A stretch of 64,000 bases of DNA from Iphione sp. A-MEVVRFRX5 (lineage: Eukaryota), in assembly GCA_976226885.1 (NCBI GenBank), contig OZ320315.1, positions 115,940,001 through 116,004,000 of the forward strand, in the 5' to 3' direction. Position numbers and translations under genes: made by a program. How positions within the stretch are numbered: the first letter of the stretch is position 1; each line of letters begins with the position of its first letter. Below the pieces are notes generated by a model that made no database searches, was not told where the DNA came from, and saw only the letters and a program-made list of their open reading frames with translations. Positions 6,706-63,236 of the stretch are shown here, in pieces.

Positions 6706-7250
6706 CTACAGTTGAATATGGAATATGGAATATGGACATGGAATACCTGCCATGATGATATTTGTTTGCGGGACAGTGGAGGAGTAGCAGGATGTGTAGG
6801 TGAGTACCGCCTTTACCGCTGCCTGCCTATGGATGTCAGCAGGAGGGGATGGGACTGCCTGACGTTGGTAGTTGTTCAGTGTCACCAAAATGAGAGCGTC
6901 CCATGCAGGCAGGAAGTGTGTTGGGAGGTCCGGCTCCTTGCGGGTGCGAAAATAGTTAGTAATCAATTGTATCACCCCCAGTTGTACAAGGGGGCAGTCC
7001 AGGTTAAAGAACTGCCCCTCCTGCCAGGTGGGCAGGATGACTCCCATGTACGTATCAGTTGTCAATGCCAATCAGTTCAACATCAGGAGTCGCTCTTGGG
7101 GGTTTATGTCAGGGTGCCAGATCCCCGTTCTTTGGCCAAACAGTACCCCGATGAGGACAGGGTCACAGTCCACAAGGGTTGGCTTCTCCCCCTGCAAAAT
7201 GGACTGGGCCCTCATCATGGCTCTGGTATAACGTCCCATCATGATCTGAA
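6706..7250 (-). pseudogene. Accessory family 'X' copy (X3)
   Basis: GIWHPDI...GVILPTWQEGQFFNLDCPLVQL...EPDLPTHFLPAWDAL...RQAAVKAV, one internal stop. Confidence 0.65.
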
Positions 7251-7331
7251 GTAAAAGTGTTTTTTTGAAAATAACTGCTAATGGGTTAGGGAGTCTGTGG
7301 AGGTGGATGAGGGGGGGAAACGGCCTGAAGA

Positions 7332-7986
7332 CTACCGTGGTCGTGGGTTGCGTGTGTCATGAACTAAAACAATATAGGGCAGGGGCGTGCATGAACTTAG
7401 GTGGAGGGGTCCGGGGGAGGGGTGAGACATTCCGGGGATGTTAATGGTTCTGTTCCACTCATCATCATCATAGGTGGGGAGTGGGGGGTACAGTCCTCCG
7501 TTTAGAAGGTGTAGGGTGACCAGGTGGCCTGACCCTGTTTTCCGCATATACGCATGCAGGCCTTGTACTGCCACCTCACACACATAGTCACTGGCTGCAG
7601 ACAAGCGGGCTGTCCTCCTCATGGCTGCGAGGGCCTCCGTGGCCAGCTGGTCCCATACGGGGTAAAACCGTGCTGGGAGCAGTGGTTCTTGGGCGGTCCT
7701 TATGTAGCGGGCAAGGATCCGCACCACGGAGAGCTGCACCAAGGGGTGAGCTCAGATTGATGAACGCCCTCCTCCAGGGGAGAATGACTGCCCCGAGGGA
7801 TGCCGTGTGGTACGACATATGCTGGAGTAGTTGGTATCGGCCGAGGGGCATCACCGAGGGATGTCTCAGTCCTTTGTCGGGCTGGTAGAGGGCGAGGCTC
7901 ACCCGAGGCATACAGTCCTCCAGTTCAGGCGCCCCTCCCTCCTGGAGGCGCCCAATCCTTGCAGACACCTCTGCATATGTGGTCAT
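7332..7986 (-). pseudogene. Accessory family 'X' copy (X2), frameshifted
   Basis: DKGLRHPSV...GAVILPWRRAFINLSSP (7588..7986) continues as VQLSVVRILARY...EPLLPARFYPVWDQL (7332..7742). Confidence 0.65.
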
Positions 7987-9626: not shown

Positions 9627-10415
9627 TCAGGGGGATCCACTTTGCATTGATTCATACTCCCAGTCCTCCTCAGCATGGAGGGGTATGGCATGCAGGGTAT
9701 GGGTGCACCTGTGGGGCTCGGATGACAAGGGGCCGGCGGCTGGAGTACCTTGCCCCTGCCTGTCTGGGTTGCAGCCCGAGGTTTCCGTGCGATGGGATTG
9801 TTTGCCCTTCCTGTGCCATTTGGGGGTACGGGGCTGATGGCGGCGGGTGTGGTGACGTCCATCTCTTGCGGGGGCCATGGTCCGGCGCCCGGGTGATGGT
9901 GATCTGTCCGAGCGGGAGGTGGACCTTTCCCTGGAGCGAGGCGCCGGGGTTGTATGCTGTTGGGATGTCCCGTCCTGGCGGGGTGAAGTGGGTTCGGCGA
10001 AGTGTCGGAACAAACCCGCCACCAGGATATCCATACGGGGAATTACATCGGCGGTTCGCTTTATATACTTCCCGAGAGCTTTGACCGCCGCCTCCCTGTA
10101 CACGCCCGTGGATAGACAGCAGCCCTTGGCAGACCGGTACTCGCACAGGGCCATAGTGACAAGGCTGTCCCAGGCTGGGAAAAATCTGGGTGGCATGCGA
10201 GGATGGTGGCGCTCCCTGAGGTAGTCTATCAGCATTTGGACCACTCTGGACTGGGCAACCGGGTAATGCAGATCGTAGAAGTGGCCATCCCAGGGGTAGA
10301 GTACCATGCCCAGGGCATCCACAGTAAAGGAGAGGTGCCACATGAGTTGGTGTCGGTACCTGTCCGAGACGTCGGGGTGACGGAGCCCCCTGTCGGCCTT
10401 GAAGAGGAAGGGCAT
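9627..10415 (-). CDS. Accessory family 'X' copy (X1) with Arg/Ser/Pro-rich tail
   Basis: DRGLRHPDV...GMVLYPWDGHFYDLHYPVAQ...FFPAWDSLVTMAL...REAAVKAL. Confidence 0.7.
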   Translation of the reverse strand: MPFLFKADRGLRHPDVSDRYRHQLMWHLSFTVDALGMVLYPWDGHFYDLHYPVAQSRVVQMLIDYLRERHHPRMPPRFFPAWDSLVTMALCEYRSAKGCCLSTGVYREAAVKALGKYIKRTADVIPRMDILVAGLFRHFAEPTSPRQDGTSQQHTTPAPRSRERSTSRSDRSPSPGRRTMAPARDGRHHTRRHQPRTPKWHRKGKQSHRTETSGCNPDRQGQGTPAAGPLSSEPHRCTHTLHAIPLHAEEDWEYESMQSGSP

Positions 10416-11229
10416 AAGGACCGGAATGCAGTCCGCTGGGGTTGGTAGGTCCCCTTACAGAAGAAGGCTTTCCCGGTCCCGGATCCGCATATGGCGGTCG
10501 GCCATGACCTGTGAATATTTGAAGTAGAGAGATGTGAGAGATCTCCCTAGAAATTTATACAATTTTGAAGGGGGTTTTAATGGGAGTCATGGTGGGGGGT
10601 GGGGGTGGGGGTCCCTGATTCGGAGTGAGGCTCTTATGGGTGGGGTGGAGGGGGGGGCGGGTAGGGGAAAGTCCCATTCGTGGTGCTGGGTACTGATGTG
10701 TCCTTTTCCTTGTATAGGTTAATTGAAACCAATGATTTTGGATGGAAAGTTCCCATGTGTGGTGCATAAAGGAGGAACCCTTCTCAGAGGAATGAGAAAC
10801 ATTGATTGTTAGCTAGCCAGTGGCAGATTGTGTCTTGGCTCTGTAGGGGAAGTTAGAATCTGGATGGCGTACCCTCATTTGGAAATTTTGATGTTCAAGT
10901 GCTTGTGTGAATTGTTTTGTTGCCTACTTGACAGAGCGGAGGTAGCTAGTCTCCGGTACTGTTTTCCAGGTCATTCCAAGGGTTAGTTGTTTTATTCTCA
11001 TTACCTTTTTATTCACAGGTGAAAGGTAGGACCCAAAGGTGAGAGGAAGCCAGTTATTTGTTATCTTATACTCAGTTTCTGTTCCAATTGGTACTGTTTT
11101 CATTTTCCCTTTTTCTGTAAGAGATTTATTATTGACGTACTGCTTTCTTCGATGCCTTTTTGTTTTCTCATTCCCTTGAATCACATGTACTTCTTGTGGA
11201 GGTCCTTCTTAGTGTTCTTATCATAATTG

Positions 11230-11520
11230 CTTTTTGTTCCATGCTTCAGGTCTCTCACCCATGTTACTGTGTTATAATGAAGGGGGAGGGTTGATGCTGG
11301 TTTGATTATGAACATTTCCTCCCTACAGGGTTCTACCTTCATTTATTGATTTTATAAGTTGTGGCTTTTTCTATTCTGGCTACTCTCATCCTAGTCCCTT
11401 ACTTCCTTGAACAAGCTTTATCTCAGAAAAACAAGAGGGTATAAATAGAGATGATTGACTGTATTTGCCATCTTAGGATGCCTCCCCTTTACATTGAGTA
11501 CAATCAAAACGTATACCTCT
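11230..11520 (-). pseudogene. Degenerate retropepsin-like aspartic protease
   Basis: Across frameshifts reads VLIVLNVKGRHPKMA-NT-SQSSLFIP...IKLVQGS, resembling V.G....lvDTGS..S.I; catalytic D not intact; follows gag. Confidence 0.35.
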
Positions 11521-11804: not shown

Positions 11805-13388
11805 TTAGTTTCCCGGGCGGGAAAAATCAGCCTCACTGAGATGGTTATAGTCCCCATGGGTCTGTTCTATTGGGCGATTTCTGGGGACACCCCTGTCTTC
11901 CCAGGATTGTGGGGGGAGGCGTCTCTGCGGGCGTGGAGAGGGGAAGCGGTAGGGCCCCGGTTGAGGACCTATATTACGGGGAGGGCGGTATTCCTGCTGG
12001 TTTGGGGAATATTGTGACCTTCTTCCCCGTGAACCTCTTCCTCTATCAGGGTGTTGCGGGGGAGGACGGGCTCGTTCCTCCATGTCCCGCTTCTTGGTAC
12101 GACATTCCCTAGCATAGTGTCCTCTTTTCTGACAGTAATAGCATGTTATATTAGAGTCAGGAGGTGTCGGATCTGGGACCTGTCGTATTATGTTAGGAGG
12201 GGGTCAGGTGGTACCACCTATAGTCTTCAAGGTAACTGCTGCTATCTCACTGGGGAGTTCCTTCATTAGTTCTCTCTTAAGAGCATCAACCACTGCTTCC
12301 ATCCTGGAGATCCTTTTACGGAACCCTCCCTGGGCATGCCAGGCTTCCCTGGCATCCTTAACTGCCTTATCAAAAGAGGGGACCGTTCGCACCTTCATAG
12401 ATTCTCTTAATTCTGGGAGTATATTTTCCATGAAAATTCTTCCTGCCATTTCATCACGATCACGCCCTGCTGCCACACACACTTTCATAAGCCTATCTGC
12501 GAATTCAGAGGGGTGTTCATCTGGTCTCTGCTTAGTGGCACTTAGTCTGTCACCTAGTTCTACTGGAGGGGGTCCCTTTTGTTCTATCAAGAACTTTCTT
12601 AACTCATCCCAATCTTTATTGGCCTCTGTGTAGAGGTGGGCAGTGCGGGGGAGGAAGGTCCGTGCCTTTTCATAGCAACGTTCCTTCCAACCTACCTGTC
12701 CCCCTTGTTCTCCTTCCTGGGGGTTGGGGTTGTCCTCATACACAGCTTTAATATAGTCCTCATACTGATGTACCCAATCTACTACCTGATAGGGGTCAGA
12801 AGGGAACATCCCTGGGCGCTTAGGAATAATAGTTAACCTTTTTGCAAATGCTTCAATCATACCCTCTTCTGCCATTTTTCTTAACACACGTTGCTCTTCC
12901 CTAGCATTAATAAGGTTAGAACTTACTGGTTGTCGAGTCTGGTAGGATGGTGTAGGCTGGGGTGTACGCATTGACGGCTGTCGTGATGGCCCTGGTTGAG
13001 GCTGGTGGATCTCCAGTGACTGTCTGGAGGTAGAGGGGTGTGGCTTTGGTAGAAGTAGAGTCTTGCGTGGGCCTGGATGGAGGACCGGTGATGATGCCCG
13101 AGGTGTCGCGGTGGGTGGAGAGGAAGGTGATGCTGGACCTTGTGGTGGAAGAGCCAGAGGGGTAGCCCAAGATGTAGGTGAAGTGGACCGCCCTGGTGGT
13201 GAGTAGGATGGGCGCCGGTGAGGATGTTGCCCTGGAGTTGTTGGGGGCCTCTGGGTGTCCAAACTCCTTGGTGGCTCTTGAGAGGTGGCACGGGTTCGTT
13301 CCCGGGACCTTCCTTGCCGAGAGCTGCTGGAGGAAAGCTTGCTTTTGGCAGTAACACTCCTGGTGACTGGTCGGGAGGCTTCAGCCAT
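11805..13388 (-). pseudogene. gag: Ty3/gypsy-type Gag (Pro-rich N-terminus, capsid, basic Arg/Gly-rich tail), disrupted
   Basis: ORF 12204..13394 with KQRPDEHPSEFADRLMKV...FMENILPELRESM capsid C-terminal motif; ATG 25 nt after PBS; RG-rich ORF 11805..12083 follows. Confidence 0.8.
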
Positions 13389-13412
13389 ACACAAGAACTG
13401 CCAGGTGGTGGT

Positions 13413-13430
13413 TACCCGGGTTCTCCACCA
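13413..13430 (-). other. Primer-binding site, tRNA-Ala-like
   Basis: TGGTGGAGAACCCGGGTA, complementary to a tRNA-Ala-type 3' end (...TTCTCCACCA), between LTR and gag. Confidence 0.75.
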
Positions 13431-14533
13431 GTTTTAAGTTCACCTACTTTCAGTTGTTATAGTTTGTAAGTGACTTTATGCGGGATCAGCCAAATGAAGG
13501 AGTCACGCAAGATTTTAGGCTTCCACCTTTTTATTGAGGACTATGCACGTGGGGCATGAGTCCTCGACCTGGCAGTATCTCTGTGGCAACAAGTCCTAGT
13601 GGGCTGGGAAGTTTACTACTTATATTGAAAACTGGAGTTCCCAAGTGGCCTATTCCTGCAGGAGGACTGGACAAGACTGTGTTGGCTATCCCCTAGAAGG
13701 TAAACCTGTTCAGTCCAATGTATAAGTCCAGAGTGGTGATTAGGTTCAGGCCAAAGGTTGCTCTTGTGGAGATGTGCAGCAGTCTGCTCCCAGTCAAGGT
13801 ATCTCCCCTGGTAGGCCAGAACTGCCTGTTTATAAAGGGTCCTGGGCTCTATGATAATGAGGGGGGGGGAAGGGGTGGAGTCAATCAGACCCTCTGGCAA
13901 AGGTAGACCCTCTGCCAAGGGTACCTTCTCTCAAAGGTACCTTCCCATAAAGGTATGATGTAATAGGGTATGACCTAATATTATATAATGGGGGGTGGGT
14001 GGGTGGGTTAGTCAGACCTTCTGCCAAGGGTACCTTCCCTTAAAGGTACCTTCCCATAAAGGTATGATGTAATAGGGTATGACCTAATATTATATAATGG
14101 GGTGGGTGGGTGGGTTAGTCAGACCTCCTGCCAAGGGTACCTTCTCTCAAAGGTACCTTCCCTTAAAGGTATAGCGGGGAGGGATGGATGGATCAATCGG
14201 ACCTTCTGACAAAGGTAGACCCTTCGCCAAAGGTACCTTCCCCCAAAGGTACCTTCCCTTAAAGGTATAGCGGGGAGGGATGGATGGATCAATTGGACCT
14301 TCTGACAAAGGTAGACCCTTCGCCAAAGGTACCTTCCCCCAAAGGTACCTTCCCTTAAAGGTATAACGGGGAGGGATGGGTGGATCAATCGGACCTTCTG
14401 ACAAAGGTAGACCCTTCGCCAAAGGTACCCTTCCCCAAAGGTACCTTCCCCCAAAGGTCTGGCCCTCGGACATAAGTTTGGAGACGAGGAGATTTTTGAG
14501 GGGAAAACGTGTCCTAGAGTTGATAACTTAACA
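13431..14533 (-). mobile_element. 5' LTR of element E1 (1,103 bp)
   Basis: Starts TGTTAAGTTATCAA, ends CTTAAAAC at PBS; TATA-like motif about 13830, AATAAA about 13533; homologous to 22645..23950; 96 bp and about 110 bp tandem units at 13890..14460. Confidence 0.75.
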
Positions 14534-15269: not shown

Positions 15270-16290
15270 ATTTGGGAGGACAGTCCTTTTCCAGATTGAA
15301 GAATGTTTTTGACAGGGCCTCCTCCATAGCCTGTTGAGTGGCATACTCAAGCTAGAGGGGCCCTGAGTGGTGGTGCCTCACCTGCAAGGCTAGTGCACAG
15401 AGGAAGTCCCAGCACAGCAGATTGTCTGTACATATGTTTTTGGGAGTGTAGGGTCACCGGAGATATCGGATTAGGCAATCCTGTGTTCTAGAGGCTGCAG
15501 AGGGTTTAGTTATGTTAAAGGACCTGGACTTACTGAGGGCTGGGACTTTACCTAATAAGGTATCAATCAGAAGGAAGTGCTTTGTGAGCCAGCGCATAAG
15601 ACTCTCCCGACGGCAGGTCCACGATTCGTTTTATTGTGCCTGTTGCCATTGCACCTGGGGCTGTGTTACAGGAGCACCACATTGCTCATAGCACACATCG
15701 CAGAGGCCCCTCCACACCAGCTGCTCAGAGAGGTGCTGGGCATATTCCTGCTCAGCTTCATGGGACCCTGTGAGGAAACTGTTCTTTTGAGCCTTGTATG
15801 AGTGAATGTTTGTGTAGCTGGTGACAGCATTTACGGCTGCTTCCCTTACATGATCATAAGAGGTGCAGAGGCAAGAGGTCTGGCACAGCTCTCTGAGGCC
15901 CATCAGGACCAGTGTATCCCAGGAGGGTAAGTAGTATTGGAGCATAGAAGGTTCAGTCCCCATGTGTAGGTATGTTGTCAACAATTTTGTAACGTAGAGT
16001 TGTATGAGGGGGGAGTCCAAATTGAAGGTGTATTTCCACCCTTTGCCTTCATGTGCCATCAGGGTATGTGAAAGATTCTCAAGGAGATGGCGGTGTTGCT
16101 TTGGAGAGATGTCAAGGTGACGCAGACCGGAATCCTTGCGGAAGAGGGAAAAGATGAGGGAAGGGGTACAGTCGGTGAGGGTCTGTTGACTCCCCTGAAG
16201 GATGTGTGTTTCACGGCGTGTCATTCTAGTGTGGCTGTTCTGCATTGTCTGATGGTCAGAGAGAGAGAGAGATCTTTGCTTTAATGACAT
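15270..16290 (-). pseudogene. Fused X+Y accessory gene
   Basis: ORF 15631..16290: DSGLRHLDI...YLPSWDTL...REAAVNAV then EYAQHLSEQLVWRGLCDVCY; downstream frame ends QQAMEEALSKTFFNLEKD. Confidence 0.65.
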
Positions 16291-20779: not shown

Positions 20780-21067
20780 CAACAACAAAAAAAAGACCTC
20801 CCAGCCCCTTTAGTGCTTCCTGGCCATGGTATACCACCAAATCGCATCCTCTACACTTTGCGGCATCAGTGGCATGTAGAGTCTTTGTAAGGCGATTACA
20901 CAGATCGCGTCCCAGGTGGGGAAGCAGTGGGCTGGGAGATCTGGCTCCACCTCTGTGCGGAGATAGCGGAGGATCTCCTCTTTCAGGGCTAGCCTGACTA
21001 GTTTATTGTCCAGGTCAAAGAATGTGCCCATCCAGACTGGCTGCAGGTGGCCAATCTGACATCTCAA
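20780..21067 (-). pseudogene. Accessory family 'X' copy (X4)
   Basis: WMGTFFDLDNKLVRL...EPDLPAHCFPTWDAICVIAL. Confidence 0.6.
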
Positions 21068-22018
21068 AAAGTTCGAGGCTACTGTCTGGAGGAAGCTTTT
21101 TTTTTGACAGGAACTATACTGTATTCCAGGATTGTTATTGTGGAGGTCTTGTAATCTTTTCTATAGATGTGCAGTATCTTACAGAAAGTCAAGAGTCTTC
21201 TTTTTGCAGATCTAAGTGTATTACCATAAAGCCCAATAATAATTTTTCTACATTTGGTTATGAGTTACTACAGTAAGATGCAACGTCTAAGGTAAAAGGT
21301 ATACAGGGTCTTGTCACCATGAATAATGTTCATAAAGGTTATACATAGAGCACTTTGATAAGATATCTAGGATGCATATATGTTGATAATGTGGCCCATG
21401 AGAGTAGCCATGTTCATAATTCCCCAGGGTGCCATTGTGGTCATGGAGATGTGTGACACCTGCTATCGGAGGAGCCTCCCTGCCTTAAGCGGGATGACTG
21501 CATGGTGCTGATATGAGTCTGATGGTGTGACTTCCCTTTGGAGAAAAGGAAAGTGATGGTAAGTGTTATCCCATTTGTGATGGGGAGTTGCATCAGGTCA
21601 TAGATGGTGGCCAGGTGTTTCTTTTCGCATGGAATGACTCCCAAATGGGCCCGTGTCAGATAGTGAGTCCTTCACCATTACTAATTCTATAGTCACTACA
21701 ATGTTTTCATGGGAGGTCGTTTGTTGTCCAGGGGCATTCCAGGTTTGTCAGTGAGGGCTCATTCAGGACTCTCCGCTACTTGGCAACTTGAATTCCCATT
21801 CCTGTTCCACGGGGAGGGGTAGGATGGGGTGGTTGCATCTGGGGATCTTGGTTGATGGAAGTTTGGTGTCTGGAGAATCGAGTGCTAGTAGGACGGGGTG
21901 TTTGCATCTGACGACGTCGGTTGATGGGCATTTGGCGGCTGGATAATTGGGGACTAGTCGGGCGGGACTACGGTATGCTGTTCCAGGACAATATGTGGAT
22001 CTGCCTTTCCTGTGCCCC

Positions 22019-22633
22019 TTAGGGGATACGGGGGCGACGGCGGCAGGTACGGCGATGCCCAACTTCTCGGGGGACAGTGCTGCGGCGTTTGGGCAGTGAG
22101 GACCGGTCAGAGCGGGAGCTGGATTCTCCTCTGGGACGGGTTGTTGGGGCGGCCCGTGGATGGGTAGGCCTGGCGGGACGGGATGTGGTATCCCGGGAGG
22201 ATGAGACATCCCTCTGGGGTGAGCCATCCCTGTGTGGTGAAGTATCCCAATGGGGCAGGATATTCCCATGAGATGAGGTATCTTGGCGGTGTGGGTAGTG
22301 CGTCTTGGGGTGTTGGTACAGGTTGGCTGCCAAAATGTCCATGCGTGCTGGTATATGGGAGGTCCTCTTCAGGTATTTCCCGAGGACCCTCACGGCTGCT
22401 TCTTTGGTCTGACTCGTGGCCAGAGAGAGCCCAACAGTTGATCGAAACTCTGCAAGGGCTACGGTAACCAGACTGTCCCAGGCGGGGTAGTACTTGGGTA
22501 GCATGCGAGGTGTCTGATGGTCCTTGAAGTAGGCCATGAGCATGTCGACCACCGTAAGCTGGGCCATTGGGTATTCTAGGTCGTAAAAGTAGCCTTTCCA
22601 GGGGTGAAGCACTGTGCCTATTGCTTCTACGGT
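22019..22633 (-). pseudogene. Accessory family 'X' copy, closest to X1, 5'-truncated at the PBS
   Basis: GTVLHPWKGYFYDLEYPMAQ...YYPAWDSLVTVAL...KEAAVRVLGKY. Confidence 0.7.
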
Positions 22634-22644
22634 GTTCTCCACCA
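22634..22644 (-). other. Truncated PBS (11 nt), tRNA-Ala-like
   Basis: TGGTGGAGAAC directly after LTR end CTTAAAAC. Confidence 0.6.
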
Positions 22645-23950
22645 GTTTTAAGTCTTTAATTGCTGTGGGATGTTGTAGTAGCAGAAAGACTTAATGTGGG
22701 ATCGATCATAAATGAAGAATCACACTTGGGTAGGTTTGCACCTTTTTTATTGAGAACTATGCACAAGGGGCATGAGTCCTCAACCTGGCAGTATGTTTTG
22801 GGGCAATAAATCCCTTCAGGTTACTGTTGTCTGGGACCTCTGGGCTCCAGAATATTCATCCTTAATAAAAAAACTGTGGTTGACTAATAAAATTAATTGT
22901 GCAGCTTACTGAGTTGGAGTTTTATCCTTTTCTGAACCTGGGTTGGTCCTAACTGATGTAGAAGTGACTTGGATGGCTCAAGGTCCCTCTGGTGGTGGTC
23001 TGCAGTTGTCTGTTCCCAGATCAGATTTGCCTGAGTGGGCCAGATGTGTCTGCTTTTAAAGGGCCTGGGCTCTATGATAATGAGGGAGGGGGAGAGGAAA
23101 AGCAATCAGACCTTCTGACAAAGGTAGACCTTTTGTCAAAGGTACCTTTCCCCAAAGGTAGCTAAAGGTATGAGAGAACCCTTTACCAAAGGTATAGGGG
23201 TGGGAACCTTTTGCAAAAGGTATGAGAGAACCTTTTGCCAAAGGTATAAGGGAACCTTTTATCAAAGGTGTAGGGGTGGGGACCTTTTGCAATAGGTATA
23301 AGAGAACCCTCTACCAAAGGTATGGGGTGGGAACCTTTTGCAAAAGGTATGAGAGAACCTTTTGCCAAAGGTATAAGGGAACCTTTTGTCAAAGGTGTAG
23401 GGGTGGGAACCTTTTGCAAAAGGTATGAGAGAACCTTTTGCCAAAGTTATAGGGGTGGGAACCTTTTGCAAAAGGTATGAGGGAACCCTTTGCCAAAGGT
23501 ATAAGGGAACCTTTTGTCAAAGGTGTAGGGATGGGGACCTTTTGCTAAAGGTATGGGAAAACCTTTTGCCAAAGGTATAGGGGTGGAAACCTTTTGCCAA
23601 AGGTATGAGGGAACCTTTTGTCAAAGGTGTAGGGGTGGTGACCTTTTGCAAAAGGTATGAGAGAACCTTTTGCTAAAGGTATAGGAGGACCTTTTGCTAA
23701 AGGTATGGGGGACCATTTGGCAAAGGTATGAGGGAACCTTTTGCCAAAGGTATGAGGGAACCTTTTGCCAAAGGTATGAGGGAACCTTTTGCCAAAGGTA
23801 TGAGGGAACCTTTTGCCAAAGGTATGAGGGATCGGGGGGGGGGGACCTTCTGACAAAGGTGCAAGGGAGACCTTTCTGCAAAGGTACGGATTATGATTGA
23901 GGCTGGATTTCTCTGATGGGGAGAAGTTTTGAAGAGTTGATAACTTAACA
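22645..23950 (-). mobile_element. 5' LTR of element E2 (1,306 bp)
   Basis: Same TGTTAAGTTATCAA start and CTTAAAAC end as E1; R/U5 aligns with 13431..13870. Confidence 0.75.
23107..23886. repeat. Array of about 30 imperfect 16 bp palindromes (ACCTTTTGCAAAAGGT) in LTR U3
   Basis: Hand count; 8-12 bp recurring purine-rich spacers, 24/28 bp units. Confidence 0.9.
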
Positions 23951-25722
23951 CCTCTCTTGGACAGTTGTTTAGCAATGTGCTGGTCATACGCCTGCTTAGT
24001 TTCATTACAATTTGGATGATGGCCTGAGAGGCAGATACTGGCCACTCATGTCCTTTCTAGGTTATTGTAAAAGGATGGGTGAGCTTGCATATGATCATCC
24101 ATGTGATAACCTGGCTTGTATGTTGGAAGCCGAGGGGTCTCAGCATGGGCACCAGATATGAGTCCCCCTAGATGTGTGGGGGTGAGGATATTTCCTAACT
24201 GGTAGCTGGGGTTCTTCATCTGAGGAGGAGTCTAAAGAAGTGGAAAACATCAAAACAGGTGCCACCAGTGGGCAGCGTGAGGAAACAGATTGAGCTAGTG
24301 AGGTGGGAGGGGATGTAGGCCTAGCTGGAGAGGTGCATGGGGGCCCTCCTGGAGAGGAGCCCATGGAGAAGCCCCACGGGGATGGACAGGGTGGAGGAGT
24401 GGTGTCGCAGCTGATCCTCTTATGCCCTAAAGAGGGTTAGTGGAGGAGTAGAAGGTAATGGGGTCTTTGGAAACTAGGGAAGGAGCCATTGACTGCAGTC
24501 CAGGCATCATCACTGTTGTAGTCTGGATGAGCTCTGACTCCAGGAGCTCCTCAAGGGCAAGGCTGAATGGATCCATGGACTGTGCTGTGGGAGAGGCAGA
24601 GGGGTCTAGGACAGAGACTGAAGTGGGGGGATGGGCTGATGAGGTGCTGCGCTCAATGTGTGGCACTGGGGCAGGTACCAGCAGGGTTGAAAATGTAATG
24701 TCTGTGTCTGTCAGACACAAAATTGGCATTGCAAGGTCCGGCATCATAAGTGTTAAAGTGTTCATTTACCAATCATCCTCCTCATCTCCACATGGTTCAT
24801 ATTGGATTGGAGGGTAAAGTCCTGCTGTGAGGAGATTCTTTTGAGCCTTGTATGCGTAAATGTTTGTGTAACTGGTGATAGTGTTGATGGCTGCTTTCCT
24901 TACATGATTATTAGAGGTGGAGAGGCGAGAGTTCTGTCACAATTCTCTGAGGCCCATCACAACCAGTGTATCCCAGGAGGATAAGTAGTGTTGGGGCATA
25001 GTAGGTTCAATCCCTATGCGTAGGTATGTTGTCAACACTTTTGCAACACACAGTTGTACAAAGGGGGAGTCCAGATTGAAGAAGGTGTATTTCCACCTTT
25101 TTCCTTCATGTGCCATCAGGGTATATGAAAGATGCTCAAGCAGATGGTGACGTTGCTTTGGAGAGATGTCTGGGTGATGGAGACCAGAATCCTTGTGGAA
25201 GAAGGCAAAGATGAGGGATGGGTTACAGTCGATGAGGGTTGGCTGACCCGCTTGAAGAATGTGTTTCCCAGCATGTCATTCTTGTGTGGCCGTCCTGCAT
25301 TGTCCGGTGGTTGGATCTTTTGAGAGATCTTTGTTTCAATGGCATATATCATTAGTATAGGTGATGTACTAATCACAGTAACCTCACAATTAAATTGTAG
25401 TCTACTTTTGTTTGATGAATAAAGTCTTCCTTTAGTAGAGTGATTAATATAAATATAATACAGGTTCATATTATGTCTATCATTGGAGAGACCTGATTGT
25501 CAAAACACTAGATGTGTACTCAGGCAGGAAATAAGCAACCAAGCTATCTTATAAGGCCTTTAGGCTGCAATTGTTGGGCTACTTTGATGTCCCATCCATT
25601 GTACCTAATTTTATTAGGGGTGAGGCTAATGTGATGAAGAGATGATAGAGGTCGCTAATCTCCTCACCTCCTCAGTGGTAGCAGGGCTCTCTCATGTGAT
25701 CAGCTCCAGCTCCCCACAAATT
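23951..25722 (-). pseudogene. Older accessory block fragments (X, V, start of Y) interrupted by LTR E2
   Basis: 24820..25722 aligns with 15760..16562; V motif at 24427..24765; AYDQHIAKQLSKRG stops at the LTR start. Confidence 0.6.
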
Positions 25723-30021: not shown

Positions 30022-30429
30022 AGGTTAAAGTACATTCAACTTCAACCTCGTGTTCATCATTCTCCACAGGACACTACTTTATTTTTATCAGGTATATCTC
30101 CATATCTCCAGTTCTATACATATTTTCCTTAGACATCGTCAGACATCACTACTATGCACAAAAAACTAGATTCTGTACTTTAAGATATCTGGCTATAAAA
30201 ATAAATCAGTACATTAAAGTTTGTGTCCTTACTGTTTGGTCCATTCTTTTTTGTGTAGCACATAGCAAAGGTACCTCTGTCCTTTAAAGGAAATCAGGTT
30301 CACCTTCTAACCTTCTTTTTCTAATACTGTTCTCTCACTGTCAGATGCAGTGGATGTAGTTCACATTTCATCTCTGAACTGGAAACTTTCATTAATAAAC
30401 AAATGGAGAATTTATTACATCAAAGTCAT

Positions 30430-31400
30430 CTTTCTCTAAGTTGAAAATATTCCTGGAGAGGGCCTCTTCCATGGCTTGTTGTGCCACTTGGTGGAGTCAG
30501 AGGGGTTCTGTATGATGGAGCTCTGCCTGTAGAGCCAGTGCACAGAGGTAATCCCAAATGGGTTCATTCCTTTCAAGGATATTGGGGGTAAAGGGAGTGT
30601 GCAAGTATTTGATGAGGAGGGTAAGTGTTCTCTTAGGTGTGCCAGAGTGGGTAAAGTTAAAAGAAATAGTCTTGAGCATTGGGTACTTTGTTCTGACACG
30701 AGGTAGTGATGAGTGGTCCAATGCTCAAGTGTCACACGGTGCAGTTTGTCTGACATTATGCTGCATGCTTGTTTCCATGGAGGATATTGCTGCAAAAGGA
30801 ATCAGGTGAGGATTCCCCATAGGGTGGGCATGGAGGTGGTGTGGTGGACTGATAGATATGTTTACACACTATAGGGGGATTTGCAAAGGAGTACCCAGCC
30901 CAGGAAGGTCCTGGAGTGAGTGAGGCAAGGGCTGAGTGCACAGCGGGGCTGGTCCTAGATTGGGAAGCTGAAGTCAGGACAAGTTCTTCCCCAGTGAGTT
31001 TGTCAAGAGCACTGAGAAAGGGGTCCCAGGATTGTTGATGGTTGGGTGGGCTGATGCTAGGGAGGGATAAAAGCCATGGGGGTGTTAGAGGGGTGATTAG
31101 AAGCAAAGTGGAACATATCCTCTGGCCTGGATGCAGGCACAGACAGCTGGTTGAAGTAAACATCTTGGTCCATGAGACAGAGCATCAGCAGGTCCACTGT
31201 AGAGGCAGTGGGTCCATAGACAGAGGTGGCTGTGGCAACCATTCAGGACTGTGGCACTTATGGCACTGTCCTCAAAAGGGGCGCTTCTTCGTGTACTCAT
31301 TTGCCTTATGCCTGGTGCTATTACATAAAAAGCCCTTACCTTGGAACCCTGATGAGGATGACATTTTGTCAACTTCCATGGGCATTTCAATCCTACCTCA
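30430..31400 (-). pseudogene. V and Y accessory gene remnants
   Basis: VDLLMLCLMDQDV, GYSFANPPIVCKH, IWDYLCALALQAELHH. Confidence 0.6.
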
Positions 31401-31899: not shown

Positions 31900-32582
31900 T
31901 TTATCCACCTGTTAATCTGCTTTGGTGAAATTGTGTAACGCCTGACTCTGTAGTGAGTGGATAGGTAGGAATTGGTGCTCTGGTATATGTAGATCTGCAC
32001 TGGTCTGCTCAGTCCTCCAGAATGTCTCCCTGTGGCTAGGAGCTGGCTGCTTATATAGGCAGCTGCCTTCTGATTGGCCCAAACCCAGTCCATACTTTTC
32101 CTATATAGGGTGAGGGTCACCCTGACCCTCTGTAGCCAAAGCCTTAGTCCATACATTTTCTATATGAGGGTGAGGGTCACCCTGACCCTCCATGACCAAA
32201 GCCTTAGTCCATACATTTCCTATATGAGGGTGAGGGTCACCCTAACCCTCTATGACCAATTTCATTCTATAAATATTTCAACTTCTCAAATACACATAAC
32301 TACATACTTTTAAATTTGTTGATATGAATTTTGTCCAAAGTATAGCTATTACTGAGTTGATAGAAATTTTATCCAAAGTTTGTGATCCTTACAATTGTCT
32401 ATATAGAGAGGTAGGAACATCCAGTCTAACCTAACCCAATACTTCAAATACATTCTTTATAAATCAGACTTGTAGTCAAATGCTATTTCAATACTTAGAA
32501 TACATACCACTACACATGTATGGATCTATGGTTAGGAAACACATACCTTGTTTTATTAATTGAGGGATTTGATAACTTAACA
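31900..32582 (-). mobile_element. 3' LTR (U3 and part of R) of the env-bearing element; distal end not found
   Basis: TGTTAAGTTATCAA start next to a PPT-position motif downstream of env; CCAAT 32073..32077, TATA 32051..32057; R-like sequence resembles LTR E1. Confidence 0.6.
32088..32260. promoter_or_regulatory. 3 x 60 bp repeats each with a GGTCA-nnn-TGACC palindrome (ERE/IR3 consensus)
   Basis: Perfect at 32115..32127 and 32175..32187, one mismatch at 32235..32247; directly upstream of CCAAT and TATA. Confidence 0.6.
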
Positions 32583-32583
32583 A

Positions 32584-32597
32584 CCTCCCAAGCACTG
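32584..32597 (-). other. Plus-strand primer (PPT-position) motif CAGTGCTTGGGAGG
   Basis: 1 nt from the LTR start; identical 14-mers at 15168..15181 and 40512..40525. Confidence 0.5.
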
Positions 32598-33001
32598 TAG
32601 AAGCTGTGTTACAACTACACAGAAACTATGAATCAGATATACGCTGTCAAGTGGAGAGTGACCCAAAGACACAATAATCCAGGAATACAATATTGAAACT
32701 GATATAGGTGATAATCTTCATAATACAGGAATACAAGGTACAATCTCCAGAGTACAGTAATACAATATACACAATGAAATATGTTATACAATTCATCATA
32801 CATATTTTAACCATCAAAGGTACATCAAGATGTGGTGATGACTACTGATACATAATTTGCCCAAGATTTGTCTTGTATCAGTCAGCATACCAGTTCAACA
32901 GTATATACCGCTATAAACATAACTAGTCAAACTCTCAAACCAAGTCAGGTGCAGATAAAGATTCCTGAAGTCTCATGTTAGACCCCACATAGCAAAGATA
33001 T

Positions 33002-35706
33002 TTAGACATAATCATTAGATGCTAGACTTTCAGTGGAGTCAGCATAATGTGAGTTAAACAACTTGACAATATTATTCTGTTTCCTTGGGGGAGGAGCATC
33101 AGAGACTGATGCTGGCTCTTTAATAACCTCACTCATATCCAACTTTGCAAGTAGCTCATTATAGGCAGGGGGAGAGGAAGCAATTGATTCAGCCCTTTTG
33201 ATCTGTTTACCAGAGGAGGTGGAGAGGTGGAAAGACGGATGAGATGGAGGACAAACAGCCACTGGGGGCAAAGCAGGATATAAACCATTTTGTAAGGGTT
33301 GGGCCCATCCCTGTTCCCCTAAAATAATAGCCTGGTATGGGAGATCTTTAATTGTCTTACAGAGGTGGTGAATATGTTGGCCTTTCCACAAAGGGACTTT
33401 TATAACTGAGGGTAAGATTACTTTTTGTGTTGAGGTAGTATCAGATCTATACAATGGGTTCTAGTAGGCTAGGTGGACTGAATAGGATAGACAGTGCTTC
33501 TCAACAGACAGGTCTGTTACCTTTGGTACAAGGAAGGTAGTTGATGGGAGGGCATTTGTCCTGAACTCATGGAGTAAGAGAGTGGTATGGTCATGAGAAG
33601 ACCCCATCTTAAGGATTCTGAAACCTGAGGGTGATGGCAGAGGGCCAGACTTTGTTGACTTTTTAGTACAAATTCTTACAACTGTTTGGACAAACTTACA
33701 AAGGACCCATATACAGAAAAGGACGCTCGCCATTATTTGGACAGTGTCTGTATGATTGAAATTAATTTCAATATTGGGTGATGTTGTAGTGGTGGGTTTG
33801 ATTGTTGGTCCAAAAAGAACTGGTGTAGCCTCAGACATTTGGGCTAGACTCATATAGAGCACCAATCTATTCATTTTCAGGGATAAGTAAATTACCAGTA
33901 CTAGGAGAATAATAGTAACTGCTGAGTGAATGGAGTTCCAGATCCATATCACAGGGCTGGCAACCTCCTGTGCTCACATTGTGGGCCAATGTGCCATTTC
34001 CTTAGTTCGCCTAATGGATTCTTGATGGGATTTTTCTATGTCTGCTGCTACCTGTAGAAGGTCCACCCCTGTATCTTTAGGGAGTGCTTGTGACATGTTG
34101 AATAGGGGAGCCTCATCTAAGGGAATATTGAATAAAAACGAGTCATTAAACTTAGCTGAGGCTATAAAATTTGGGAGAGATAAGTTAAATGCAGTGGCCA
34201 TGGCCAGGTTGATACCGTGAATGGGTAGCTGTGTGTGAGTTTTGTTACAGGATTTAGGTGACTGTATCTTGTATGGGCCCACAGTAAGTGTGCAGTTACA
34301 GGGGGGTTTGTATGTACAGAGAGGACAGTTGAGAGTGTCTTTTGTCTGAACATGTGGTCAACACTGGAGGTGTGCCTGCTGAGATAAGGACTGTGTCATT
34401 AAGCATGTGAACATATGGAGTCATGGTTGATTTAGGGTGAACTGTGAATTGGCATAGTGTGTGTGCAAGGTCATGTCTGTCATAGAAGAGTGCTGTGGAG
34501 CATGCTTCAAGTGGTTTTGTGTTGAGCTGTGGTAGCTCCCAGCAAACACGAATGTCATGGCCATGGCAATGAGTCATGTCTTGGTGGCTAAGCTCTATAA
34601 AAGATGATTGATCAGGGGAGATGGCTAAAAATGCAGGCATGTGTTGTATTTTGGTGTATCCATGTGCAGTTGTGGTGGAGAATGGTGTGTTGAATGTATG
34701 TACACGATATAGATCATGTTGGTCTTGTGCTGTTCCTACTGGGACCCGGACATGTATAAATAGGAAACTAATGGAATACATAAATTGGGCATGTTCATAG
34801 TAAAATGCTGGGTCTGTGATCATTACTTGCTCCCATTCCGTAAGCATCTGGCTGACCCTATGAAGACCTCTGGCTATTTGGTCTGGGCTAACTAATGATC
34901 CTGATAATTGACCTATATGTAAATCATTAATGGCTAACCTAAAATGGAGGAACTGTTCCTTTAGTTTGTGCAGTGCTCCAAGCTTAAGGATTAGAAAAGA
35001 GATATAAGTCTGTGTTTCCAGACTAATATCAATAACATGGGATTAGTTTCTCATTATGTAATCAACTTGTCTGGAGAGATGCTCTGCACGTTGGATGATT
35101 CCTAATATTGCCTTGTCATGGCAACTGACCTGTCGGGTGATTGTTTGTATCGCTATGGAGGTAGTATTTGCCAAGGTTGAAACCTGTGTCTGCAAAGTTA
35201 AGATGGGTCTATTTTATCTGCTAACATATCTATGCGCTGTGATAACGCTTGTACATCATCCATTGTGGTGGTACCAAATAGAGCTTTTGAGGCTGAACCC
35301 ACAAATCCAAACCAAGACCGTGGTCATCTACCTGATGCCTCAGAGGTTGGATGTGCTAAAAGCCTCAGAGGTTGGATGTGCTAAAAGTCTATTGAGGTGG
35401 AGGTTTTCTTCTCCCACTTCATGGAAGAGTCCCTCATAAAGGTGTTGTTTTTCGAATGAAGTCTTCCAGACATCTGCATGCCCCTCTTTCTGAACATGGT
35501 AGTTGACCTCTCAGTGGAGTGATTTTATTAATTGATTGAAATAATTTAGGTCTAGGAATTATGAAGAGGAGTTCCACATTCTTATGGTTAGTGAAGATGG
35601 GTGTAGGTAATTTTTCATACAAAACACCAAAATTTTGCCGCAAGGTGTACGATGAGTGTGTAGCAGGCACCAGGGTTATTACTAGAAGTAGGAAGGCTGT
35701 CCCCAT
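33002..35706 (-). pseudogene. env: Envelope glycoprotein, baculovirus-F/errantivirus class I fusion type, full length but disrupted
   Basis: Signal peptide MGTAFLLLVITLVPATHS; R(stop)PR|SWFGFVGSASKALFGTTTMDD fusion peptide; Cys-rich ectodomain; TM IWIWNSIHSAVTIILLVLVIYL; 25 bp duplication near 35337 and several frameshifts. Confidence 0.85.
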
Positions 35707-38852: not shown

Positions 38853-38939
38853 AGAATCGTCAATATATGACTGCCTACCTTGGTCACACTTATGACGAAT
38901 TTCATCAAAGTCAAGGTCAAACTGACATACCTGTGGGGT

Positions 38940-40406: not shown

Positions 40407-40430
40407 TGCTTAGTCATGCGATGCCGACAT

Positions 40431-53792: not shown

Positions 53793-55679
53793 CTAACCTA
53801 CTAGTTCTTCTCTTATTGACATTAGGGCCTTTCCCAGAATGTTTTTTCCATCCACAACATTAGTCGACACAGTGTCACCATCAGGCAGGCTCGCAGTACC
53901 CGTTCCCAATTCTGGGTCACGATCCACGTATTTAATAGATCGCTTGCCAGTCGCGATCAGCGCAGCTTTAGCCTCCCTGTTGTTCCTTATAACGTGTCGC
54001 ATCACGTTTTCCATAATTACCTGTGAATTGCAGTCCCATTTTTCTCCTTTCTGCACTTTGCGATTCACTTTCCTTGCCTCATCCACCGATTCGCAGTTGT
54101 TTATTTCTCGCGCGAAATCAAAGTCTCGCTCCAAACGAGATCTTAGGTGGTGGAATGCGACTTCCGGCGATTCGTGTTGTTTACCTTCGAGGATTAAGGG
54201 GGGGAGGCATGCTGGTGATAATAAGTTGTGGTCCCTGTCAAAGCAAAACTCTTTATCAGTTTCGACATAGTTTAGACCATTGGTACGCAGATTTTCCGGC
54301 AAGTATGCAGTATCTTTTGGGGTGTATTTCGTTCCATCTATGAACAAGTCGACGCCCCTGACACTCGCTTTACTGCCATGTGCACGGGCCTTGTAAGCTA
54401 GTCTGCGCTGTTTTCGGTTTATGTCAGTGGCACTGGGAGGTAAGTCTTCCCTGATGAAGATACATTTTAGCTCCTGCTTTGTATTGAGTTTGCCTTTGTT
54501 TTTCAGAATTAGGTTCCTACCCTCTATTGAGTCCAGTAAAACCACCACTCGAATCTTGCTTCTCTGTTCACCTAGAATGTTGTAGTCGACAACTTCAGCA
54601 GGCCTAATGTTCGCCACCATCTTCACTATATGTCGAATCCTTTCACCTAATTTGTTTCTGTGTTTCGCATCTATCCCATCAATAACAACTCTCCGACAGC
54701 GATCTTTCACCTCAATTCTCGTCAAGTCTAGTTTGAGAGTATTGCACTTGTCTCCAATTGCTCTTAAGTGCTCATCCATCTTTATCAATTGTGATTCAAT
54801 TTCAGAGCGCAACTTTGTCGTATGCCTTTGCTCTAATGTTTTCCTTTCCTCCGCTAGTTTCACAATGCTCTCTTTGACACCTGTTAAGTCTGTCCTTATA
54901 GCAGATAATTCACCGTCAACACGCTCCTTGAAAAGAGTGATATCCTTTTCTAGGCTGCTCATAGAGTTAAATATCACATTGTTCATTCCAGAGCACTCGG
55001 TGTCATCCCCAGGGATGTCATTACTTGGAGTTTGATCAGGCGTGCCCTTCGAACCTACGTCCTGGATCACAGGTAAGGACGTGTCCGATCTGGTGACACC
55101 AACCGTCACATCCGATTTTGTTGCATTCCCATTCGTACAAACTGTGTTCTCATCATCATGTTCGACCAGATACCTATCCTGACCTTCATCCTGATCATCA
55201 ATAGATAAGACACAGTCCACAGGATTCTTTGGTATAGCCCCTTGTCCAATGCTGTCACACACTGACACCGACTCCAGGGAACCAGCCATGTCATGTTTAT
55301 GCTGTACGACTTGTGAACCGCTCCCTATTTGCTGGTCCTGTGTGCTGTTCTGTGCAGCAGCAATACTTTCATTAGGACTGTTATTACTGATCCGGTCTGT
55401 CTTGTCTTGAGTAGCCCAAACAATCTCACCTTTGGTCAGCTTCTTGACGATGACCGTTGGTCGCAGATACAGCGGCAACATTTCCCTATTGTCGCCCGTC
55501 AGTTTGAAAATCATATTTGGATCGATCGCATTGCCATTCCCATTGCAGATCCGGTCACCTACGATTCTTGTTGGCAATCTCGGTAGGATGTTTGCCTTGT
55601 ATGCATTCTTTTTGTGAGCTTTAGTTCCCATGTTTACCCACTGAAACTCGATGTCGCCGGGAGAGCACTGGAGCCACAT
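53793..55679 (-). CDS. LINE ORF1: coiled coil + RRM/CTD-like region + C-terminal NADAR (YbiA/DUF1768)-like domain
   Basis: Heptads then RRVVIDGI...IFIREDLPP; C-terminus ESPEVAF...EKW...ALIATGKRSI...DPELGTG...GKNILGKALMSIREEL; likely start at ATG 55631. Confidence 0.8.
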   Translation of the reverse strand: MWLQCSPGDIEFQWVNMGTKAHKKNAYKANILPRLPTRIVGDRICNGNGNAIDPNMIFKLTGDNREMLPLYLRPTVIVKKLTKGEIVWATQDKTDRISNNSPNESIAAAQNSTQDQQIGSGSQVVQHKHDMAGSLESVSVCDSIGQGAIPKNPVDCVLSIDDQDEGQDRYLVEHDDENTVCTNGNATKSDVTVGVTRSDTSLPVIQDVGSKGTPDQTPSNDIPGDDTECSGMNNVIFNSMSSLEKDITLFKERVDGELSAIRTDLTGVKESIVKLAEERKTLEQRHTTKLRSEIESQLIKMDEHLRAIGDKCNTLKLDLTRIEVKDRCRRVVIDGIDAKHRNKLGERIRHIVKMVANIRPAEVVDYNILGEQRSKIRVVVLLDSIEGRNLILKNKGKLNTKQELKCIFIREDLPPSATDINRKQRRLAYKARAHGSKASVRGVDLFIDGTKYTPKDTAYLPENLRTNGLNYVETDKEFCFDRDHNLLSPACLPPLILEGKQHESPEVAFHHLRSRLERDFDFAREINNCESVDEARKVNRKVQKGEKWDCNSQVIMENVMRHVIRNNREAKAALIATGKRSIKYVDRDPELGTGTASLPDGDTVSTNVVDGKNILGKALMSIREELVG

Positions 55680-60300: not shown

Positions 60301-62793
60301 GAAATTAATAAAAAAGGGAGAATACCTTCAGATATTTACCATTCTTGGTTCTTTATCCATCAATCATAGATATCACAGTACCAACAGATCTGTCTGTAAT
60401 CTATAATATGGTGCCATTATGTGGAGGGTGTGGTTCTTATAAAAGGACTCACTTAATAGATCATGTGAATAACTGGCTGTTATCCCAGTAAAAGTGAACA
60501 TGCTGGCCAGTTAAGATAAATGGACTCCTGGTAGAGGTTATGACTAGTTTTGGACTATGTGAGAATAATGACATGAAGTATATTTGTTAAAATTTGTTTT
60601 ATTTAGTTTCATAAGCTATAATGTACATGTCTTCGTCATCTTTATCAGGGATTTCTATAAATTCTATAGTGTCAGCATTTGGATTTGTAATGGGTGCATT
60701 TTTATCACTGGAATCTTCATCATCTGAGTCAGGAACGATAACAGGGTTATCCCATGTTCCTTATCCATCCCTCATGGCGCACCTGGGTCCCACTTGTCAA
60801 AGTCATCCTCCTCCTCTTGTTCCATGTCATTGATAGTGACATCACTCCATTCACTCCAATCGCTTTCCATGATGTAGTGGTTTAACTGTATTGCCTATTG
60901 GCAAAGGGAAAAATACTGTCTTTATGGAAATCAAGATGTCTTAAAGGAAAATATGCTTAAAGAGAGTCACAATTCATATAGAATTGAAGGGTAGTAATAA
61001 TATCATAAGATTGTTGCCAATTATTAAAACTGCTGGTAAGGTTGAATCTGCTGGACAGAATGTGTGTGTGTAGAGTCAAATAAATACTGCTGCACAGTTA
61101 AAGTGGTAAAAGACAGTCCTTTTGCACTTTAAGTTCAGTCCATAGATAGATAAATGCAACTATAGAGTCATAAAATGAAAGGCCTTGATTTGTTGTTGGA
61201 ATCATTTGTTTGGTAATATGGTAGTAATTTTGAATGTGAACGTGAGTTGGACATCACCGTGTGGTAGTAATGTGGTGAAATATCTGTTTATTTTCCTTGG
61301 AAGGAAATGGGTAGTAGCTAACCTAACAGATTTACCTAGGAACCTTCGAAACTATGCTATCAGGTCGTGTTTTATGTCAAATAAAAGCTCAAAGTTAGCT
61401 CTTTTTGTTGGTAATGTCAGTCTTGTTGTGGCATAAGAACTACAGGCGCTAGAGTGACTGAAACATCGCTGAGCGGCAAAACGGCAAATTGCGAGGTAGT
61501 GATATTGAAATGGGGTTGAAACTTGGACTGCGGCTACAGAGATCGTTGTGATCTCCACACTGCTATCATTGGTTTAATGATAGAATAGGACACAGAGGCA
61601 TAGGAGCGAATTTAAATATCGCCGAGCAGCAAAGTATGTGTGAAGCAGTCAGATTATATCTAAACTTTGGTGCTGGGTTTGAAGAATGGGGCTAGAGGGT
61701 CGTATCTTACTATCAAAATAAAAGGTCTTAATCTGCTGAATAAGGTGGTTTTCTCATGTCATAAAATATGTGGGCATCAGAGTGAATTTAATATTGCTGA
61801 GCGGCAAAATGGTGGCCGATTGTGCAGATCCATTGTCACTAAATCAAATATTCAACAGGCCCACATGGCCATGTATCTAACCTTAATATTGGTCGTAGAG
61901 AGTCATATCTTATATCTTGGCTTGCTGAACACAGTGGTAATATATGGAGAATATTGCCAAGCGGTTAAAGTATAAGAATGCATGGTAAATGTTTAGCGAG
62001 TGTGTTAGTGTGATCGGTTTGAGTGAGGGCTGCTGTTTATACTTCATAGCTGTTGCTGCAGAGTGGGGGTCACAGGCAATCAAGTCCGTAGTTTCCCGAG
62101 GTATACTCTAAACAGCTTTTGCAGCTTTTTAACATGTTGGCTAAAAAAAGAGGGTGGTTTTCGAGGTTTAGCAATATTTTACAAGAGGACGTCATGCTGG
62201 AACTAACCCACTCATGGATTTACTTGGAGAAAAAGGATTGTTTTTAGAGGTTGTTAAGTTCAGCCATCAACAATAGGAGAACCACTTGCCTGATTTACTC
62301 AAGACGCACAGGGTATGTATGCCTCTATGTGGTCTCTATGTGTGAGCAATTTCAGACCTCTGTATTTATTCACTCTGGTTGTATGGTGAGTTCAATCACT
62401 GATTGGCGAGAGCAGTTCATTCAATCATTTCAGGTACGTGAGATGAATTTTCCTTCAGATAAGAGTTAACATTGTAGGTAACAGTAATATGTTGAAACGA
62501 AGCTGTAGGTACACTGTTTTCTCTTGATGACATTAGTTTGCCAGTATGATAAAATCTAACGCGTGAGAACAGGTTTAAAGTTGCTGATCAGTAAGAGTGG
62601 AGGACTTAATGTAGGCCTAGCTGCTGTCGGTTGTAGGAGTGGTAGACATGTTCGGTAGGGACATTTGTCTTGGTCATGATTATAATCATGGGTAGGTACT
62701 TCAAACATTGTTATCATATAAATATAGTGCTTTAAATCCATAGAGTAAAAAGGTAATTTAAAAGTTAAAAGGGTTTACAGATAAAATGTCCAT

Positions 62794-63236
62794 TCAGTCC
62801 CAAATTTCTTGTTCTTCGGACTCTGCTTGTGACTTAAATCCTGCAAAATTCAGCCTCTCTTGTTCTCTGTACATGCCAAACTCAAACTCACAGAAGTAGT
62901 GTGTGTAGTTCCACACCACTCTTTGAGCTGCCTCTCTCCAACTCATACAAGACCTTGAATGCTGGAAAGTCAGCAAAACGATGCAGGACGGTAGTGAGCA
63001 TGAAGGTCGGGCTCTTGCCTATTCTCCATGTATGTGAGCACTAGATTCATCACTGTTTGGCGAACCAAATTGTTTTGAAAGTTGAAGAACCTTCCTCTCC
63101 ATGAAGGGAGAATATCCATGGCTAATGCCAGATAGATGTCAAATATGTGAGACAGTATCTTGAGCATTTCTTTTCTTGCCCCATTTGAAACCTTTGGGTC
63201 GCAGATCCTCGTGTCCTTCCTAAGAAGATACATCAT
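62794..63236 (-). pseudogene. Divergent accessory family 'X' copy
   Basis: ILPSWRGRFFNFQNNLVRQTV...EPDLHAHYRPA, then REAAQRVVWNYT in the next frame. Confidence 0.6.

Follow-up and report, generated by a model that had tools for sequence, protein, structure and literature searches.

A 64,000-nucleotide stretch of the genome of Iphione sp. A-MEVVRFRX5 (assembly GCA_976226885.1, contig OZ320315.1, positions 115,940,001 to 116,004,000), hereafter the window, contains the remains, inserted into one another, of a giant Ty3/gypsy retroelement with an envelope (env) gene, of which three or more families are represented, and these elements carry a new family of accessory proteins, here called X, which they have in common with a DNA transposon. 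X is a conserved family without detectable relatives; together with Y, a second accessory gene of the same elements, it very probably constitutes a spliced accessory gene family, judging from the signals that precede the reading frames. An earlier note on the window had described X as an unrecognised folded domain in eight diverged copies. All eight were recovered by tblastn and an iterated profile, each on the minus strand (at Z=1e6, the strongest segment of a copy has an E between 2.7e-13 and 3.4e-63), and the host element, the splice signals and the X copies of the DNA transposon now extend that description.

The X family and its carrier retroelement

Forty-six full-length X copies were taken from the fetched stretches, and the 31 that are less than 93% identical were aligned. 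Their pairwise identity ranges from 22 to 93% (median 34%), and seven columns are invariant among them (D31, G46, H49, Q89, P114, W116 and D117); the 1.18 Gb, CpG-poor genome holds at least 149-150 matches. The domain proved longer than the 140 or so residues originally proposed, measuring about 172 (~170-175) with an additional N-terminal helix. Its AlphaFold2 model consists of six helices and no strand (predicted local distance difference test, pLDDT, 85.1; predicted template modelling score, pTM, 0.81), and the core is basic, with a median isoelectric point of 9.3.

That this folded domain was under past purifying selection, as the earlier note had supposed, is borne out by the model and by the ratio of nonsynonymous to synonymous substitution rates (dN/dS), which lies between 0.05 and 0.36 in the 30 pairs with dS of 0.15-1.0. 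These belong to a set of 1035 pairs, 770 of which are saturated; outside the main range, the six closest pairs give 0.16-1.04 and 216 pairs at dS 1-2 have a median of 0.44. X evolves faster than the integrase of the same element pairs, at 0.05-0.40 (two values undefined) versus 0.03-0.07. In addition, dS in the X/Y region often exceeds that of pol for the same pair, and cassettes may have been exchanged between families. Might X nevertheless be carried along neutrally, or be what is left of a decayed host gene? In the window all eight copies are indeed broken by stops, frameshifts, deletions or truncation, and one of two X genes captured by the DNA transposon (see below) is degenerate. Against this, the dN/dS of the various clades lies far under 1, recent insertions keep their frames open, and both the splice motifs and a C-terminal motif are conserved, which makes such an origin very improbable; the dN/dS of X in the retroelement and in the DNA transposon largely refutes it.

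The family also stayed unrecognised in profile, sequence and structure searches. Pfam returned no family at its cut-off for 31 X or 11 Y members, PHROGs no match, and the PDB sequences none at E 10; among 5.8 billion proteins there was no match with either a single sequence or the alignment (lengths of 85-315 residues only), and the one match among 1.84 billion representatives was rejected as a low-complexity repeat. Peptide patterns found nothing in viral and metagenome contigs, and neither X nor Y lies near any of 77 distant pol loci. At the level of structure, Foldseek gave no match at E 0.001 against PDB or BFVD, whereas the best VIA-align hit among 48,161 chains was NusB (Z 4.1; root-mean-square deviation 3.5 over 84 aligned residues in the C-terminal half), below the noise expected of helical proteins, a result that proves neither a new fold nor the absence of a hepadnavirus-core fold. 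For a kinship with the hepadnavirus core protein, neither kind of search produced a usable match to any family. Two candidate kinships were rejected on the all-helical model: PD-(D/E)XK/YqaJ nucleases, whose core is alpha/beta with a beta sheet and for which Atlas gave a weak lead (score 0.92, only 126 of 256 features shared), and the US22/SUKH family, for which none of the 31 members has a Pfam match and whose SUKH fold is alpha/beta. An Atlas lead linking Y to the SU10 adaptor was weak. X is likely to be a new fold. The literature searched does not describe the family, although Repbase, subscription papers or bioRxiv supplements could hold an annotation; three short motifs were absent from the supplements of one survey (PMC13524379), though pol and accessory sequences may lie outside those files.

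An arginine/serine-rich (RS) tail, which the earlier note had ascribed to some copies, is genuine and is a feature of one paralogue clade, X1, where it spans 120-180 residues with a net charge of +8 to +21. An acidic motif with a tryptophan lies within the final 32 residues of 37 of the 46 copies, including after the RS tail, and several of the nine copies that have no such motif are truncated; judged by its sequence, this end may be a short motif through which a host protein docks.

The relationship between X and Y differs from the fusion first envisaged. The junction near 15760 is spanned by one of 40 matches, the window copy itself, and its two halves lie 5.1 kb apart at C11:44.38 Mb, so that the fusion arose by a deletion of about 5 kb private to this copy. 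The link to Y itself stands in another form, for Y holds an X-like region of its own (profile comparison: 96.8% probability, E 2.7e-10, 102 columns), and its C-terminus is a distant paralogue of X. Upstream of this region the Y genes have an invariant cysteine cluster (C-x2-C...C; alignment A2), with the exact spacing of a CCHC knuckle in one family.

The stretches around other copies reveal the carrier, whose layout is long terminal repeat (LTR)-gag-pol-[1-4 X genes]-Y-env-LTR. Seven elements retaining both LTRs measure 17.5-24.1 kb, and their LTR identity of 98.5-100% indicates that several families inserted recently; several recent insertions lie in long tandem satellites with units of 671, ~215 and 157 bp (L021-L025, L026-L029, L053). 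Pfam identifies a zinc knuckle, protease (PR), reverse transcriptase (RT), RNase H (RH), integrase (IN) and Baculo_F, with pol in the order PR-RT-RH-IN (residues 275-369, 591-753, 816-948 and 1109-1281) and, downstream of it, an F-type env (E 2.4e-09, 36.8 bits against a cut-off of 24.1). The insert of pol between PR and RT is presumably dUTPase-like, which Pfam did not confirm. Upstream of the protease, pol begins with a Cys/His-rich region of about 170 residues (L017:4420-4950; also P0006, P0033 and P0035) for which Pfam gives nothing; by eye it had seemed X-like, an idea rejected when the X profile lent no support. The primer-binding site (PBS) is an 18-nt complement of host tRNA-Ala(AGC), with 70 exact LTR-end/PBS matches in the genome; a purine tract is present, and the one insertion checked has a 4-bp target duplication. 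Integrases of different families are 78-95% identical, yet the number of X genes varies from one to four. Amplification within the element, as the earlier note had it, is real, but the eight window copies taken together represent several nested insertions.

The LTRs carry repeat arrays of their own. Dyads of the form ACCYT-N6-ARGGT occur 8-26 times in each LTR of five elements that have otherwise dissimilar repeat units, and are absent from 152 kb of control sequence; in the window they occupy 13889-14443 and 23110-23870. Single-X families have ARGGT-N7-ACCYT instead (32107-32233 in the window).

Splice-signal motifs, and X genes in a DNA transposon

How might so many small genes be expressed from one element? 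An in-frame start is present in 40 of the 46 X copies, and in every one of these 40 a YAG triplet lies 2-3 nt before the ATG, preceded in 31 of them by at least 10 pyrimidines in 15 positions. Among 2257 other ATGs, YAG occurs before 177 (7.8%), and YAG with the pyrimidine criterion before 2.6%. All nine env starts found have YAG 5-9 nt upstream. A matching donor is available in the gag leader, where GTAAGT occupies an aligned site in 13 of 13 cases within an otherwise divergent region (expectation from Val-Ser codon usage, ~3% per lineage), 51 nt before the second ATG in 12 of them, and the region ahead of it contains few ATGs. These motifs point to splicing from one donor to several acceptors, likely in the manner of complex retroviruses. 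As the acceptor lies either 2 or 3 nt ahead of the ATG, splicing could give gag-leader fusions in some cases and unfused products in others. The acceptors would equally suit spliced-leader trans-splicing or transcripts from internal promoters, either of which may operate instead. A GTA after the PBS was dropped as evidence for a conserved donor because it falls within the 18 nt complementary to tRNA-Ala, and no spliced retrocopy joining PBS to ATG was found among 13 pattern matches, a check that did not extend to the gag-leader donor.

One X clade has no retroelement genes nearby and sits instead in a 14.0-kb unit common to at least five loci compared. Elements of the CMC/EnSpm (CACTA-like) type are defined by CAC termini, short inverted repeats and a 2-bp target duplication, and this unit has 25-bp CACAG inverted ends and 2-bp duplications (TG, TG, TA, AT) at each of four insertions, in agreement with that definition. 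It carries divergent transposase and SAM-like genes, with X within an intron; its 723-aa frame matches Plavaka and DUF4218 below their cut-offs (E 0.002-0.02). X is present in nine copies of the transposon and open in seven, with AATAAA 40-48 nt after the stop in eight of the nine, and its frame agrees in phase with that of an exon lying 903 nt upstream, which is SAM-like (match to Pfam SAM_2 at E 0.025, short of the cut-off). Its dN/dS is 0.15-0.42 in seven diverged pairs (Fisher p <=0.009 in each), alongside 0.24 for the transposase.

Five more distant relatives of this transposon were also compared. Three near-identical ones (L189-L191) have an X at the same place, and two (L188, L192) have none. 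This second X falls inside the single-X clade of the retroelement (bootstrap 94, within a clade at 100). Neither its ATG nor the invariant Trp survives, 13 residues are gone as well, and only as a fusion could it be read. With two different X clades in the DNA transposon, X has crossed between transposon classes at least twice, by two captures or by a capture and a conversion. The tree gives a clear direction of transfer for the second X and an uncertain one for the first (support 87/85, midpoint root).

Candidate roles of X

What, then, would such a protein do for two unrelated kinds of transposon? We consider the chances about even that X is a spliced accessory gene family acting in trans, as an adaptor that keeps the element expressed against host silencing. 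In a single LTR transcript, splicing would join the donor of the gag leader to the acceptor that immediately precedes the start of an X gene, of Y or of env; the basic helical core would bind element DNA or RNA, or a silencing protein, and the acidic-Trp tail would recruit a host factor. The paralogues might divide this job by target or partner, X1 adding a tail predicted to bind nucleic acids. The argument for such a role starts from the DNA transposon, which needs neither export of unspliced RNA nor a virion, so that selection on X there speaks for a general part in dealings with the host (anti-silencing or activation) and less for one in RNA export or in the virion. Being selected in both the LTR element and the DNA transposon, X would serve a common need, either expression despite silencing or control of the host cell, and the basic core, acidic-aromatic tail, fast turnover of paralogues and family-specific repeat arrays together seem best to fit an anti-silencing or activating adaptor like VANC of the Arabidopsis VANDAL elements. 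VANC, too, is a diverging transposon-encoded accessory family that lies beside family-specific tandem repeats; its binding and anti-silencing activity have been demonstrated, and X is likened to it by analogy only, for VANDALs are plant DNA transposons and no sequence or fold link to X was found (PMC5735166, available text). A fuller version of this proposal, which we put forward tentatively and think doubtful as a whole, is that X and Y are a new-fold anti-silencing or transactivating family, an animal counterpart of VANC, expressed as a spliced array in giant errantiviruses and acquired on two occasions by a CACTA-like DNA transposon, where it would follow a SAM-like domain as an in-frame exon.

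Several observations weigh against the anti-silencing adaptor. The LTR dyad, a candidate target of X, is found in just five of nine leaders and is missing from the other four as well as from the DNA-transposon tiles. Just six of nine Y genes are preceded by the acceptor motif (within the 2-9 nt range of env and Y); as the copies are related, 40 of 40 and 13 of 13 amount to about ten and about six lineages, and the variable acceptor-ATG spacing leaves the reading frame after splicing unfixed. The acidic-Trp motif is compatible with unrelated partners such as kinesin light chain, Arp2/3, PH domains and ATG8. In the DNA transposon, one near-identical X pair has a dN/dS of 0.97 (four changes), and the relatives with no X, together with the degenerate second X, indicate that X is dispensable there. 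Finally, neither the homology nor the fold searches point to a function.

It is conceivable, but unlikely, that X, and above all RS-tailed X1, exports the unspliced 17-24 kb genomic RNA in the manner of Rev or CERV. One donor with three to six acceptors would create the need for such an exporter, and the X1 tails have a suitable Arg/Ser-rich, basic character. A precedent exists in CERV of the C. elegans element Cer1, which derives from a spliced mRNA, is required to export genomic RNA and is, like X, a novel, lineage-restricted accessory protein of an LTR element. CERV, however, is the product of a single gene, with 517 residues and other predicted domains, and the available text reports no paralogue array (PMC10309623). 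The RS tail is absent from families that carry just one or two X genes, which have nonetheless inserted recently, and the selection on X in a DNA transposon also speaks against export.

We likewise see a rather small chance that X acts on the host cell and not on element expression, through superinfection exclusion, cell survival, immune signalling or drive. Any host-facing effector might be expected to change fast, to gain and lose paralogues and to pass from one transposon class to the other, as X does, and Burro elements contain apoptosis- and ubiquitin-related domains (PMC6431247, available text). On the other side, the X core is basic, and the alignment and model show no recognisable effector domain, signal peptide or membrane segment. 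More improbable still is a component of the particle or ribonucleoprotein, in which X would be either helical and core-like, its tail being basic, or an adaptor to a motor by way of the Trp-acidic end. A helical domain followed by an Arg-rich tail resembles the layout of the hepadnavirus core. Trp-acidic motifs bind kinesin-1 (PMC5450233, available text), and one X clade has SLEWD. The element, however, has its own Gag, most X proteins have no basic tail, and the DNA transposon has no particle.

The window and comparison with known elements

Just three of the window copies of X (X3, X2 and X1) belong to a single element, which has lost its pol and whose LTR starts at 14533 (Table 1). At the DNA level, the copies at 15631 and 24820 match a second, single-X family and that at 22019 a third, in which LTR and PBS are joined into X1; those at 20810 and 62970 have no match among the 23 tiles compared. 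Every remnant of these LTR families lies on the minus strand, and they are nested, an arrangement reminiscent of a uni-strand small-RNA cluster. An open frame of 290-400 codons overlaps X1 in another frame (9673-10554 in the window; L002-L010) in most close copies; it could represent a second, overlapping gene, or simply result from the GC content. Other residents of the window are a DIRS-like element with gag-like, RT and tyrosine recombinase parts (36155-40409), inserted into an env remnant; a 628-aa frame with a coiled-coil, LINE-ORF1-like middle and a C-terminal NADAR domain (53796-55679, E 6.8e-14); and a fragment at 26116-26793 that resembles a Polinton-type family B polymerase, for which Pfam gave no match.

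Table 1. Positions of X, Y and element features in the window, and of the DNA transposon
Feature	Position	Strand	Remarks
X1, X domain and Arg/Ser-rich tail with terminal acidic-Trp motif	9627..10505	-	one internal stop near N-terminus
X1 acceptor-like CAG	3 nt before ATG of 9627..10505	-	sequence motif
X2	7332..7986	-	frameshift near 7745; acceptor-like CAG 2 nt before ATG
X3	6706..7242	-	one internal stop; acceptor-like CAG 3 nt before ATG
X of single-X family	15631..16245	-	private deletion joins Y sequence near 15760
X fragment	20876..21109	-	profile E 7e-14
X1-type gene, third family	22019..22636	-	lacks 5' part, coding region fused to LTR/PBS by deletion; frameshift in RS tail
X of single-X family	24769..25345	-	stop and frameshift
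X fragment	62982..63242	-	stops; profile E 2.7e-13
Y gene (Pro-rich N-part, Cys cluster, X-like C-terminal region)	1956..4261	-	frameshifted
Y C-terminal fragment	30422..30679	-	weak match of X profile
5' LTR of X1-X3 element	13432..14533	-	21 ACCYT-N6-ARGGT dyads
18-nt primer-binding site	13413..13430	-	complementary to host tRNA-Ala(AGC)
Donor-like A|GTAAGT in gag leader	12921..12927	-	sequence motif
gag of X1-X3 element	12084..13388	-	pol deleted, junction near 11491-11496
LTR of third family	22646..23950	-	28 ACCYT-N6-ARGGT dyads
Two 63-bp tandem arrays between X3 and Y	4312..6476	.	repeat arrays
Broken F-type env and 3' LTR, single-X family	31976..35667	-	
14.0-kb CAC-terminated DNA transposon	G000:C11:31489106-31503086 (L164-L165); also C1, C4, C19, C22		

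In their LTR-gag-pol-env order, F-type env and PR-RT-RH-IN pol, the X-bearing elements, which are errantiviruses in a broad sense, resemble the 'ancient errantiviruses', and F-type elements with a tRNA-Ala primer site have been catalogued in annelid, mollusc, cnidarian and crustacean genomes (PMC13524379, available text). They differ in that 6-11 kb of sequence, made up of accessory genes and arrays, separates pol from env and brings the total to 17.5-24 kb. The metazoan survey allowed a POL-ENV gap of at most 1,000 nt and a total of at most 10,000 nt, according to its available text, so that X-bearing elements fell outside its filter (PMC13524379). The nearest pol relatives are P0006 (71%) and P0033 (54%). 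In size (>20 kb), extra open reading frames and tandem repeats the elements recall Burro of planarians and Ogre of plants, and Burro has a dUTPase-like region at the place of the pol insert, between PR and RT; in the available account, however, Burro holds known domains in one polyprotein and its env lies between gag and pol, and Ogre owes its length to its LTRs, where the X elements have separate short paralogous genes (PMC6431247). The ORF3 genes of bdelloid rotifers are likewise a single extra reading frame common to unrelated element types, but these are known enzymes among retroelements, whereas the X fold spans an LTR element and a DNA transposon (PMC5408684, available text).

Invertebrate env-bearing LTR elements have mostly been described as simple gag-pol-env units. 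The families described here have up to five accessory genes built from one helical domain, which have been duplicated, lost and exchanged, and selection continues to maintain the domain in the DNA transposon into which it has moved. If X does counter silencing, its small, foldable proteins would open a way to study the means by which animal transposons withstand control by the host.

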